From: a virus
Virus record (IMG/VR): IMGVR_UViG_3300028394_000040
Length of the DNA: 64,000 nucleotides
Direction: 5' to 3' (one strand)
Shown: positions 52,426 through 64,000 of the stretch, piece by piece
Layout of the letters: each line of letters starts with the position of its first letter
Position numbering within the stretch: the first letter of the stretch is position 1
The notes under the pieces: model-generated
What the model was told of the DNA's origin: nothing
What the model saw: only the letters and a program-made list of their open reading frames with translations
Databases searched by the model: none
Position numbers and translations under genes: made by a program

Positions 52426-54102
52426 TTAATTTTCTCTACGTTCTTCTGCTGGGTAGAATTCAAACCTATCGTGGTTAATAGGAGATAAAAGAAGTACTGC
52501 GGCTTTAATGTAGCCTTCTCTCTGTTTCTGAAATACGTAGCTCATCCATGTTTGTTCGAAAGGATGTTCCCATTTAGTTTCTAAAAATACTTTCCTATTT
52601 CCTTCTCTACTAAACCAAACAGGCCAATTACAGTAATGAACTTCACCTTCTGCGTACGCAAGATTACCTGCTGCATCTATCTTAGAAAAAGCAGTTTTAG
52701 GAGGATTAGGATCTAAGCCAGATTGAGGTAGATTTTTCTTTTCAGGAAATTCTTTCTCCCTTAGCCATTGAGGTATATTATACCATGCCCATTGAACTGA
52801 GTTTTCACCAAAGAACTCGGAGAAGGATAGCTTTACGTAGTCGTAATTGTTAATATACATTACCGACAGAGATTTCGAATAAAGACTAGGAGTATACCTA
52901 GCATGTCCCATTTTACAAGTTGCATCTGTATTAGGATGTAGGAACATATCATCCTCGAAAAATATATAATAATCAGCATCACTTTCATTAAAGTGTTCGG
53001 CTACCCACTGTCTTCCCCCACATATACCTATATTATCTTTTTTTACATGCTCAAAATCATACTTTTTACATAGAATATCATACTCTTCATCCGTTTCTCT
53101 CTTTGTCGAGTTATTTAATAATACCTTTCTAGTTCTTTCTAGAAAATTAGGTTCTACTAAGGTAAACGACTGTAGTAGTTTTGAAAACTGATTAGGTGAG
53201 TTATACGTAATTACATATAGAATCGTCTGCAAATCTATAAAGGGTTTTTTCTTAAGTTCTAACGTAGTCCTTACTTCTTTTAAATATTCAAAAAATGGCC
53301 AAACAAGACCATTTCCTTCTATTTCGAATCGTTCAATTAAGTCTGGATATTGATGACAAAGGATAGTAAAGATACATTCATCTGCTCCCATATACCCTTC
53401 GTTTAAGGTAGAGCTTAATACATTATAGTATAGCCCGTTCATAGTATGAACCATCTCCTTACTCCCTCCAAAGAACCCTCCTCTAGCTACATACTCTACG
53501 AAGTCAGTACGGCAATATTCTGCCATCTTCTTTCTTTCAAAGCCATGAATTTCCTCGTTAGAAGTATACGGGTAAGTAATATGAACATACTTACCTATAC
53601 ATTGACTATAATGATCTAAGTTATCGAATACGTTATCGTGCGTAAAATAACCTTTGCCCACAGTATTCGTTAATCCTCCGTCTATCCAATAAAAATACTC
53701 TGATTTAAAAGGGTTACCTATAGCGCTATCATTTACCATAAACATCTTACACATCATCATAGGGTTATAAAACTCTAATGCTGCTTGTGGAGATTCCGGT
53801 AGCCATCCTGCAAAGTTAGCCCATTCAGGATTTGTTCTTACTTCTTGAACCTTATCGAAAAAAGGAAACCAGGTTTTGAAATCTTCTAACTCTTTAAAAT
53901 AATAAGCTGTAGGTTTATCACCTCTAATAGCTTTTACCTGCTCTTCTAATTCTCTAGGTATCCAAATGCACATTTGTGCATCTGCTTCAAGCATTTCAAA
54001 AAATCTATCTTTATATGCTTGGAAATCTCTTTGAGCCCAACCCTGTAAATCCCCTCTTTTTAAATCCCAAAGGCCTGTTACGATGGTTACTTTTCTATTC
54101 AT
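52426..54102 (-). CDS. Two-domain glycosyltransferase (HtrL/YibB/WlaTC-like plus GT-A)
   Basis: VTIVTGLWD...NPFKSEYFYWIDGG...GGFFGG; second domain NIGICGGR...YYIFFEDD. Confidence 0.75.
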   Translation of the reverse strand: MNRKVTIVTGLWDLKRGDLQGWAQRDFQAYKDRFFEMLEADAQMCIWIPRELEEQVKAIRGDKPTAYYFKELEDFKTWFPFFDKVQEVRTNPEWANFAGWLPESPQAALEFYNPMMMCKMFMVNDSAIGNPFKSEYFYWIDGGLTNTVGKGYFTHDNVFDNLDHYSQCIGKYVHITYPYTSNEEIHGFERKKMAEYCRTDFVEYVARGGFFGGSKEMVHTMNGLYYNVLSSTLNEGYMGADECIFTILCHQYPDLIERFEIEGNGLVWPFFEYLKEVRTTLELKKKPFIDLQTILYVITYNSPNQFSKLLQSFTLVEPNFLERTRKVLLNNSTKRETDEEYDILCKKYDFEHVKKDNIGICGGRQWVAEHFNESDADYYIFFEDDMFLHPNTDATCKMGHARYTPSLYSKSLSVMYINNYDYVKLSFSEFFGENSVQWAWYNIPQWLREKEFPEKKNLPQSGLDPNPPKTAFSKIDAAGNLAYAEGEVHYCNWPVWFSREGNRKVFLETKWEHPFEQTWMSYVFQKQREGYIKAAVLLLSPINHDRFEFYPAEERREN

Positions 54103-62403: not shown

Positions 62404-64000
62404 TCAAAGGCAACTGATTGGTAAATTGTCGCAGCTACCTGAATAAGTAGGAATACCGCTTGCCAATATAAATATTGGAGGATTACTTATTGTTGTATCT
62501 GTTATAGGTTGTTTGTAGAATCCGTTAGAAGTTGTTCCAGATAATAAACTAGAAGAGTACCAAGTAAGGGCTGTTATATCTCCTTTAGAACTACTATAAG
62601 CAGATTTATTAAAATAAACTATACTAGAAGTAGGACAAGTACTACAAACTACATTTAAATCGCTAGTAGATAAAGCCGAACCTGAAATGTTATAATAACA
62701 GAATTCTTTCGTTACTACATCAACTACATCAAATAATGCATAAATTGTTGTTGAATATCTTAAATTATACGTAATAGACGATAAAGAAGAAATAATATCA
62801 ACAGTTCCTGGAGAGTTAGACCATGCTATAAAGGTTGTTGTTCCTAGTGCTGTAGCTGATAATCCGTGGTTCGAATCATATGAGCCGGATAATATAAAGG
62901 AGCTGGTATACTGGGTGGGGTTAGAAGCAGTTACATAACCTTGAGAGTTATACGTCAAATATGTAGGTACAACTGTTAACGTATAATCACTACATTGAGT
63001 CTGTGTTCCTCTATAGAATATTCCTGTTTGGTCTCTTACCCATGGATCTATATAAGCTAATGCTGTACTAGCAGAGTAGTATGATGCAGAGGTAGGTGCA
63101 GTCCAATTTAAACCTGCATCTAGACTATACTCATAAGGTGGTAAACCACCTGCTACGTTAATAGTTGCATTACCGCCAGTACAGTCTACAGTAGTCCCTG
63201 TTATTCTTAATAAATTAGGAGGTGGTGGGCTAGATGTAGTTGGTGTCGGTGTTGATGTAGGAGTTCTTGTATTAGTAGCAGTTTGTGACTGCGTGTTAGT
63301 TTGAGTTTGAGTATTAGTACTTGTTAAAGTTTGAGTAGGAGTCTGTGTACTAGTACTTGTTACTGTCTGTGTCGGAGTCTGTGTATTAGTTGCAGTTACT
63401 GACTGAGTAGGTGTTTGAGTACTAGTACTTGTTAGCGTCTGTGTAGGAGTCTGGGTACTAGTACTTGTTAACGAAGGGGTTTGTGTCTGCGTAGACGAAT
63501 TTGTTAAGGTAGGAGTTTGTGTTAACGTTGGAGTACTAGTTAACGTCTGTGTAGGCGTTTGCGTAGAAGTTAACGTAGGAGTAGATGTACCGCTATTGGT
63601 TGGAGTTTGTGTACTAGTTTGAGTATTTGTTTGAGTAGAAGTAGTCGTCAACGTAGGTGTCGATGTTAACGTAGGCGTCTTAGTACTCGTATTTGTAGGA
63701 GTCTGTGTAGCTGTTTGACTATTAGTTTGGGTATTTGTTTGAGTATTAGTACTTGTTAAAGTAGGTGTAGCAGTACTACTATTTGTAGGAGTCCTAGTGC
63801 TAGTAGGAGTCTGTGTAGGAGTAGGTGACTGTGTTCTAGTAGCTGTAACCGAAGGAGTCTGTGTCTGCGTTGTTGTTAACGTAGGGGTAGAAGTAGGACT
63901 AGGGCTAGCACATTCCGGGTCTTGTGCCAAAGCACAGTAGTAAATATCGTTAGTTACATATATTAAGCCTGCTGAATAAAATATGTAACTAACGATATTT
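62404..64000 (-). CDS. Mucin-like repeat protein, 5'-incomplete (frame is open to the window edge)
   Basis: Upstream of the track's TTG (63930) the frame reads NIVSYIFYSAGLIYVTNDIYYCAL with no stop; about 230 aa TxTP tract followed by a GG..PYEYSLD.G domain. Confidence 0.75.
   Translation of the reverse strand, partial: NIVSYIFYSAGLIYVTNDIYYCALAQDPECASPSPTSTPTLTTTQTQTPSVTATRTQSPTPTQTPTSTRTPTNSSTATPTLTSTNTQTNTQTNSQTATQTPTNTSTKTPTLTSTPTLTTTSTQTNTQTSTQTPTNSGTSTPTLTSTQTPTQTLTSTPTLTQTPTLTNSSTQTQTPSLTSTSTQTPTQTLTSTSTQTPTQSVTATNTQTPTQTVTSTSTQTPTQTLTSTNTQTQTNTQSQTATNTRTPTSTPTPTTSSPPPPNLLRITGTTVDCTGGNATINVAGGLPPYEYSLDAGLNWTAPTSASYYSASTALAYIDPWVRDQTGIFYRGTQTQCSDYTLTVVPTYLTYNSQGYVTASNPTQYTSSFILSGSYDSNHGLSATALGTTTFIAWSNSPGTVDIISSLSSITYNLRYSTTIYALFDVVDVVTKEFCYYNISGSALSTSDLNVVCSTCPTSSIVYFNKSAYSSSKGDITALTWYSSSLLSGTTSNGFYKQPITDTTISNPPIFILASGIPTYSGSCDNLPISCL
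63942..64000. repeat. Perfect inverted repeat of at least 20 bp with a 19-nt spacer
   Basis: aaatatcgttagttacatat (63942-63961) and atatgtaactaacgatattt (63981-64000). Confidence 0.9.

Follow-up and report, generated by a model that had tools for sequence, protein, structure and literature searches.

The subject of this analysis is a 64,000-nucleotide (nt) stretch of viral DNA, IMG/VR virus record IMGVR_UViG_3300028394_000040 (the window), and within it a cluster of four candidate glycan-building genes, P0001 to P0004, together with two upstream genes, P0005 and P0006, whose products carry long threonine-rich tracts. The window belongs to a large tailed phage; its large open reading frames (ORFs) all lie on the minus strand, and its G+C content is about 35%. 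The six genes are as follows.

56617..57870, minus strand: P0001, a GT60-family glycosyltransferase of 417 amino acids (PF11397, phrog_24687)
55439..56617, minus strand: P0002, a GT31-fold glycosyltransferase of 392 amino acids (predicted structure and Foldseek)
54102..55442, minus strand: P0003, a GT34-like domain plus an S-adenosylmethionine (SAM)-dependent sugar O-methyltransferase-like domain (Pfam, PHROG, PDB sequences)
52426..54102, minus strand: P0004, a two-domain glycosyltransferase (HtrL_YibB Pfam match, predicted structure)
57927..62390, minus strand: P0005, a candidate acceptor of 1487 amino acids (translation, composition)
62404..63999, minus strand: P0006, a candidate acceptor of at least 531 amino acids, 5' end beyond the window (translation, periodicity)

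The four enzyme genes occupy 52426-57870 on the minus strand with successive overlaps of 1, 4 and 1 nt, coordinates that bear out the four coupled genes described in a first-pass annotation of this DNA. P0005 and P0006 lie directly upstream of P0001 on the same strand, with gaps of 56 nt (P0001/P0005) and 13 nt (P0005/P0006). Promoter and terminator sites were no more numerous in the window than in shuffled sequences, and our claim of an operon is therefore limited to the gene overlaps.

The assignment of P0001 to GT60, already made in the first-pass annotation, is firm. The protein scores 226 bits against PF11397 (cut-off 21; E 1.2e-66) in two stretches, the best of which spans profile positions 98-351 of 352, and it matches phrog_24687 end to end. 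The same family turns up in further sets of related records, in 8, 9 and 5 of them. Conservation across 81 relatives and the homolog from the cultured jumbo phage XacN1 reaches at least 97% at D93-S-H95 and at 146 further positions; D93-S-H95 lies within a conserved Q.DSH.RF block, and an FHPH block is likewise conserved. The D-x-H/D-x-D signature is the metal-binding motif of GT27/GT60 type. The catalytic domain covers approximately residues 1-300. Past the Pfam GT60 domain, P0001 carries a C-terminal extension of about 115 amino acids (residues ~300-417, window 56617-56970) that is conserved in all phage relatives and that might serve for targeting, as the lectin domain does in animal GalNAc-transferases. 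A phmmer search of PDB sequences with P0001 and P0004 found nothing. By its family and conserved motifs, P0001 is a candidate initiating polypeptide N-acetylhexosamine (HexNAc) transferase.

For P0002, no Pfam family matched at E ≤ 0.1, Galactosyl_T and Fringe included, and phmmer against PDB sequences gave chance-level matches only. An AlphaFold model predicted with 31 metagenomic homologs has a mean predicted local distance difference test (pLDDT) score of 93.5, and its best PDB matches by Foldseek are B3GalT6, CHSY3, B3GNT2, Manic Fringe, B3GalT5 and C1GalT1, the last being the mucin core-1 synthase (probability 1.0; template modelling scores of 0.45-0.55 on target length). Among the first 17 matches listed (ranks 1-29), 16 are GT31-type enzymes and the other is AfGfsA. 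Residues D120-D121 are invariant in 32 homologs, and the protein has an additional C-terminal alpha/beta domain. Because there is no match to a GT31 sequence model, we call P0002 GT31-like by fold only; judged from this model, it is a candidate extending enzyme.

P0003 joins two domains. Residues 1 to about 225 match Glyco_transf_34 (PF05637) with 49.1 bits (cut-off 23; E 8e-13), a partial match whose best stretch is profile positions 140-208, and this N-terminal domain also weakly resembles Skp1 Gat1 (PDB 6mw5; E 6e-4). Residues ~235-446 match five SAM-methyltransferase Pfam families weakly and under their cut-offs, P0003 matches the phrog_21658 methyltransferase at 1.8e-22, and its C-terminal domain matches MycE (PDB 3ssm; E 2e-16, residues 237-405) and TylE (PDB 8ia9; E 1.4e-13). 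MycE and TylE are macrolide sugar O-methyltransferases, and in sequence the C-terminal domain of P0003 resembles enzymes of this type. P0004, in turn, has an HtrL_YibB domain at residues 3-257, matched in 34 of 34 aligned family members, and a second GT-A domain at residues ~290-558. Its predicted structure (pLDDT 91.8) contains two GT-A domains, and its Foldseek matches are Mimivirus R699 (the best), LH3, LARGE1, K4CP, COLGALT1 and heparosan synthase. Together, the Pfam, PDB and fold matches uphold the first-pass count of about five glycosyltransferase domains and one methyltransferase domain, and they bear out the enzyme types that had been guessed (GT60, GT31-like, GT34-like and sugar O-methyltransferase).

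We found no signal peptide, membrane segment or hydrophobic segment in any of the four enzymes, and for this reason the cassette is predicted to work in the cytoplasm. In this respect it falls outside the secretory-pathway definition of mucin-type glycosylation, although it may operate in a similar way, and as to location the "eukaryote-style" mucin pathway of the first-pass annotation did not hold up.

T-even glucosyltransferases glycosylate modified bases in phage DNA, and the enzymes described here might do likewise. Speaking for this, and against a protein-directed cassette, 8 of the 34 P0004 relatives weakly match TAGT (best E 4.5e-4), the Pfam "TET-Associated Glycosyltransferase" family, which glycosylates DNA. 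We nevertheless regard DNA as a very improbable target. P0001 achieves its 226 bits on a protein-modifying family, and five glycosyltransferase domains plus a sugar methyltransferase are, to our knowledge, far more than any DNA sugar modification employs. No hydroxymethylase or TET-type gene was found by Pfam among the window ORFs scanned, which took in most ORFs of at least 100 amino acids from 16.5 kb to the window end, three excepted. In addition, modification of DNA would leave the association with threonine tracts, described below, unexplained.

The first-pass annotation had correctly placed two repeat-bearing genes next to the enzymes, but its description of the repeats as "TxTP/TQTPT" was too simple: the tracts are strictly alternating (Thr-X)n, over 167 amino acids in P0005 (residues 1070-1236) and 230 amino acids in P0006 (residues 33-262). 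In both, Thr-Thr pairs are absent at lag 1 and reach about 2.0 times expectation at lag 2, the maximum possible, with Q, S, P, L or N as the X residue. Chance is excluded as an explanation because threonine makes up 45-50% over such lengths. The tracts, and a third protein that carries one and lies outside the interval of the first-pass annotation, are located as follows.

~58683-59201, 58422-58481 and 58122-58211, minus strand: (Thr-X)n tracts of P0005 (composition)
~63214-63903, minus strand: 230-amino-acid (Thr-X)n tract of P0006 (periodicity)
25623..26606, minus strand: P0043, third tract protein, 327 amino acids (translation, periodicity)

P0005 consists of a conserved N-terminal domain of 1040 amino acids followed by (Thr-X)n tracts between small Cys- and Tyr-rich modules, and has no Pfam or PHROG match. 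Residues 1-1040 define a family with members in 46 viral loci (27-91% identity), some of which have C-terminal tracts and some not. In P0006, the only PHROG match is phrog_15511, which falls on the tract itself, and the C-terminal region after the tract is SprB-repeat-like by eye; its ortholog in the sister phage contig L449 has 535 tract residues. P0043 comprises a 35-residue head, a 65-residue (Thr-X)n tract (~26307-26501) and a C-terminal domain, and by eye its start lacks a hydrophobic leader. It lies inside the structural module, neighboured by the major head protein (29888-31576) and fibre-like proteins, and the end of its C-terminal domain resembles the LamG-like (by eye) tails of proteins found upstream of GT60 elsewhere. 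The major head protein ORF of the window is not among the tract-bearing ORFs. The non-repeat parts of P0005, P0006 and P0043 had no match in Pfam or PHROGs. Part of the tract-coding DNA (58687-59051 and 63298-63555) consists of tandem repeats with periods of 36-132 nt and 58-97% match (97% in the best array), which suggests recent expansion; such repetition would account for the breaks of related assemblies in the tracts, as in L450, a contig that ends inside one.

We used the relatives of P0001 to ask how regularly GT60 genes and tracts occur together. A scan of viral contigs recovered at least 272 relatives, and the locus analysis was made on the 80 that were kept, which share 59-73% identity with P0001, save one 100%-identical fragment; related contigs reach 274-322 kb. 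Judging by their IMG sample numbers, we take most of these 80 contigs to come from lake or other freshwater metagenomes. An ORF with at least 30 tract residues lies within 10 kb of GT60 in 59 of the 80 loci, equivalent to 26 of 40 clusters at 90% GT60 identity, and in 16 of these 40 clusters it ends no more than 400 nt from the GT60 start. Over the 4 kb upstream of GT60, 11-14% of the DNA codes for tracts, against 0% in the first 2 kb downstream and 1-7% farther away. The proteins upstream of GT60 are mutually non-homologous (by eye they contain Cys-rich modules, BspA-like repeats, and LamG-like and SprB-like domains), and only the tracts recur.

The association also holds in the reverse direction. 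Viral records were picked by a DNA pattern for TPTxTPTxTPT, and controls by the same pattern reversed; PF11397 occurs in 17 of 76 pattern-picked records versus 0 of 39 controls (Fisher p = 0.0006); by sequence length, 6.8 carriers would be expected among the controls. For pattern-picked records of at least 100 kb, the fraction is 10 of 16. A TQTPT DNA pattern was dropped as too specific, giving only 1-3 matches per genome. Among cultured jumbo phages, XacN1, Xoo-sp13, RAS14 and CM1, whose hosts are Xanthomonas and Stenotrophomonas, have GT60 homologs with 42-46% identity. In the complete GT60-positive genomes the pattern matches 51 (XacN1), 51 (Xoo-sp13) and 22 (RAS14) times and the reversed control 0 times, whereas 8 of 8 complete GT60-negative cultured phages (RsoM2USA, RaK2, GAP32, SCTP-2, Atu_ph07, Flavobacterium phage immuto, Mel-JY01 and LR756508) have 0 matches (3/3 versus 0/8, Fisher p = 0.006). 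This negative set includes the window's own nearest cultured relatives as well as a phage, RsoM2USA, from the same clade as XacN1 (PMC8504454). Terminase relatives among viral contigs were rejected as a within-lineage control, being nearly all short contigs, and the cultured genomes were therefore taken instead. The co-occurrence of GT60 with Thr/Pro-repeat genes that the first-pass annotation had put forward is upheld by position, by genome and in the reverse test. Both computational checks proposed in that annotation favour it, and no outcome that it had named as refuting was observed.

Published evidence from XacN1 bears indirectly on the product of such a cassette. XacN1 encodes a GT60 homolog, ORF334 (44% identity), and a P0004 homolog, ORF330 (40%). 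Purified XacN1 virions contain at least two Schiff-stained glycoprotein bands, for which the authors suggested that the phage's two glycosyltransferases, including ORF334, are responsible; the text neither names the proteins in the bands nor connects GT60 with tracts (PMC5852040). The XacN1 tract proteins ORF370 and ORF372 adjoin tail sheath genes (locus L117), and ORF370 matches a virion structural PHROG. Elsewhere in XacN1, ORF232-237 (L116 2049-11105) are six tandem paralogs of phrog_15511, ~400-750 amino acids long, all of which have a (Thr-X)n tract of 60-100 residues in a matching central position. ORF325 of XacN1 (L115 7371-17312), a protein of 3313 amino acids whose C-terminal, Cys-containing modules are joined by short Pro-Thr linkers, is encoded between the glycosyltransferase cluster and the baseplate wedge genes. 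Our literature search for GT60 or PF11397 together with phage found no paper linking GT60 with phage threonine repeats.

Based on these data, we propose that the four coupled genes probably form a phage cytoplasmic protein O-glycosylation cassette that targets (Thr-X)n tracts of the phage's own proteins, the candidate targets being P0005, P0006, P0043 and their counterparts in related phages. Several observations weigh against this proposal. No tract lies within 10 kb of GT60 in 21 of the 80 loci. Conversely, four tract-bearing records rated complete by CheckV (G007, G027, G031 and G059) have no PF11397, and tracts therefore do not need GT60. The sister phages L449 and L452 (G123) have no glycosyltransferase genes at the cassette site, and neither PF11397 nor a P0004 homolog was found in G123 (108 kb, 65% complete). 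P0005 has two hydrophobic segments (residues 382-400 and 455-473), from which it could be a membrane or ejected protein, and neither P0005 nor P0006 has a recognisable virion-protein domain in Pfam or PHROGs. Finally, the co-occurrence rests on few independent lineages, so that shared descent is only partly controlled. The GT60 loci that lack a nearby tract, the GT60-free phages with tract proteins and the unnamed proteins behind the XacN1 bands are also what would be expected if the cassette glycosylates capsid, sheath or fibre proteins elsewhere than the tracts, with the tracts acting as flexible linkers. We judge such non-tract targets unlikely, given that tract density peaks at the GT60 start, that cultured jumbo phages follow an all-or-none genome pattern and that characterised GT60 enzymes prefer Thr-rich mucin-like peptides.

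The gene content of related cassettes suggests how a tract-directed system might vary. A P0004 homolog lies 0.6-6 kb downstream of GT60 on the same strand in 75 of the 80 loci, P0003-like genes are found in 19 and P0002-like genes in 3. Between the GT60 gene and the P0004 homolog, relatives have genes of the GT25, GT7-like, GT10 and GT11-like families, and a 293-amino-acid family related to XacN1 ORF332 is present in 57 of the 80 loci. A carbamoyltransferase gene lies between the two in XacN1 and Xoo-sp13, and the gene layout of the cassette in Xoo-sp13 and RAS14 is as in XacN1. All of these (GT25, GT7-like, GT10, GT11-like and the XacN1 carbamoyltransferase) are glycan-building or capping types. 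Judged by gene order, GT60 and P0004 appear to be the fixed ends of the cassette, with the genes between them swapped among relatives, and the glycan would therefore be strain-variable.

The same gene families bear on a further explanation, in which the cassette alters glycoconjugates of the host, or makes a polysaccharide in free or lipid-linked form, for superinfection exclusion or receptor masking, and P0004 is a two-site polymerase like LARGE1 or K4CP. The fold of P0004 does resemble bifunctional polymerases, HtrL_YibB is named after an E. coli gene in the lipopolysaccharide (LPS) core gene region, and GT25, GT10 and GT11 relatives are common in LPS/O-antigen loci. However, none of the enzymes has a membrane segment, and among the ORFs scanned with Pfam (most of those of at least 100 amino acids from 16.5 kb to the window end) there was no gene for a priming phosphoglycosyl transferase, a flippase, a polymerase-ligase or nucleotide-sugar synthesis. 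Such a role would also leave the link to tract genes unexplained, and the published staining points to virion glycoproteins. Action on the host surface is, in our view, quite unlikely.

Immediately downstream of the cassette lies a possible clue to the mobility of the proposed tract-glycosylating genes.

51671..52400, minus strand: downstream flank, a 100-amino-acid ORF and a SegE-type GIY-YIG homing endonuclease (PF19835, E 5.9e-27)

In the sister phages L449 and L452, which keep the order P0006-P0005-small ORF-SegE-primase-nuclease and have long tracts, the small ORF/SegE flank directly follows the P0005 ortholog. Relatives thus either have or lack the cassette next to a homing endonuclease, and the tracts can be retained where it is not close by. 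The SegE-type ORF itself (window 51671-52108, minus strand) has its counterpart at 16415-16861 of L449, and GIY-YIG-like ORFs (by eye) lie directly upstream of GT60 in two other loci (L011 9559-9909 and L013 9429-9779). This placement hints that homing endonucleases help to move the cassette. As a tentative extension, which we hold to be possible though doubtful, a mobile "glyco-typing" cassette together with fast-evolving tracts may produce a strain-specific mucin-like glycan brush on the appendages of unrelated jumbo-phage lineages; interchangeable genes for glycosyltransferases and capping enzymes (methyl, carbamoyl, fucosyl) would lie between those for the GT60 enzyme and the two-domain transferase. 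If true, the brush would parallel O-antigen diversity on the viral side, and the cassette would move between phages beside homing endonucleases and shape adsorption, stability, or escape from grazers or host defences.

Comparison with known systems helps to place the proposed cassette. GT60 enzymes of Dictyostelium and Trypanosoma cruzi add alpha-N-acetylglucosamine (alpha-GlcNAc) to threonines of mucin-like domains (PMC8724618, PMC3769586). The protist enzymes (Dictyostelium Gnt2 and T. cruzi OGNT) belong to the same PF11397 family as P0001 and share the conserved D-x-H; as in the protists, the candidate acceptors are Thr-rich repeats, and further transferases would extend strain-variable glycans. 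In contrast to the protist system, the window enzymes are soluble, predicted to be cytoplasmic and encoded by a bacterial virus, with neither a Golgi nor a secretory route, P0001 has the extra conserved 115-amino-acid C-terminal domain, and the tracts are strictly alternating. A cytoplasmic GT60 enzyme that starts a short protein-bound chain would recall the hydroxyproline glycosylation of Skp1 in Dictyostelium and Toxoplasma (PhyA, Gnt1, Gat1), although the candidate acceptors here are long repeats rather than one residue. In addition, Pfam found no prolyl 4-hydroxylase among the window ORFs scanned; for this reason the hydroxyproline route was set aside and linkage to threonine is favoured.

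Among viruses, glycosylation of the virion is reported for mycobacteriophages Che8 and Rita (Freeman et al. 2023, Cell Host Microbe 31:1216, as cited in PMC11256854), and the glycans are described in PMC11256854 as lying on the major capsid protein. There, a glycan coat results from phage-encoded glycosyltransferases that act, inside the host cytoplasm, on virion proteins of the same phage, much as we propose from genes for the window. The mycobacteriophages differ in that their glycans are on the major capsid protein and not on repeat tracts, and in their Actinobacteria hosts and small siphovirus genomes. XacN1 is closer, with a GT60 and P0004 pair flanking variable modifier genes and with many (Thr-X)n proteins; yet it is of a different lineage (RaK2-like, with a Xanthomonas host), its tract genes are dispersed and do not adjoin GT60, and a carbamoyltransferase replaces the window methyltransferase. 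Giant viruses (PBCV-1 capsid glycans and Mimivirus fibrils; PDB 2p73, 9dyt) likewise encode a cytoplasmic, host-independent glycosylation of surface proteins; the structure that P0004 matches best is Mimivirus R699, and the PBCV-1 capsid glycosyltransferase is among the matches of P0002. Their hosts are eukaryotes, however, and their acceptor sites are other ones, and we know of no GT60 initiator in giant-virus glycosylation systems.

We infer the acceptor, the donor, the order of the steps, the structure of the glycan, its location on the virion and its benefit. In the mechanism that we envisage, soluble P0001 would place the first HexNAc on tract threonines in the host cytoplasm, most likely from uridine diphosphate (UDP)-GlcNAc, giving alpha-GlcNAc. 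P0002, with its GT31 fold of the inverting beta-1,3 type, the retaining-type GT34-like domain of P0003 and both GT-A domains of P0004 would then add further sugars. Finally, the MycE/TylE-like domain of P0003 would O-methylate a sugar. P0005 and P0006 may be virion fibres, and shielding, adhesion or escape from grazers are conceivable purposes of their decoration.

The remainder of the window contains a virion and packaging gene set, in which we identified the following.

38688-40277, minus strand: terminase (PHROG)
36735-38669, minus strand: portal (PHROG)
29888-31576, minus strand: major head protein (PHROG)
in the window, minus strand: prohead protease (PHROG)
7874-11341 and 14451-16550, minus strand: T4-type fibre/baseplate-like proteins (PHROG)
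16551-18203, minus strand: fibre or spike protein with a C-terminal endosialidase-chaperone (Peptidase_S74) domain
43976-44815, minus strand: likely endolysin with peptidoglycan-binding and GH19 domains

A phrog_21918 domain is common to the giant fibre-like proteins of the window (7874-11341 and 19670-25510, minus strand) and to XacN1 ORF370 and ORF372, and so connects two jumbo-phage lineages that are otherwise far apart. No cultured phage was matched by Megablast with 18 kb of the window as query. The nearest cultured terminase is that of Flavobacterium phage vB_FspM_immuto (57.5% identity). A scan of genome bins for close GT60 relatives returned five contigs of metagenome-assembled genomes (MAGs) only (Saprospiraceae, Bacteroidetes and others), which are probably mis-binned phage DNA; in these five, no clear homolog context of a cellular kind was found. 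Because the immuto terminase is nearest and GT60 relatives occur in Saprospiraceae and Bacteroidetes MAGs, the host of the window phage is likely a member of the Bacteroidota.

Phage particles are usually regarded as bare protein; glycosylation by virus-encoded enzymes has been documented in a few mycobacteriophages and in eukaryotic giant viruses. Our data point to a widespread system, with close GT60 relatives on at least 272 viral contigs and the enzyme pair also in four cultured jumbo phages, that by comparison with known self-glycosylation would have a different initiator and a different acceptor. The proposal can be put to a direct test, as XacN1, Xoo-sp13, RAS14 and CM1 are cultured phages and sugar staining of XacN1 virions is already positive. 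If confirmed, it would represent a soluble route to mucin-like glycoproteins in the bacterial cytoplasm and would revise the view of receptor binding, particle stability, antigenicity and environmental decay in large phages.

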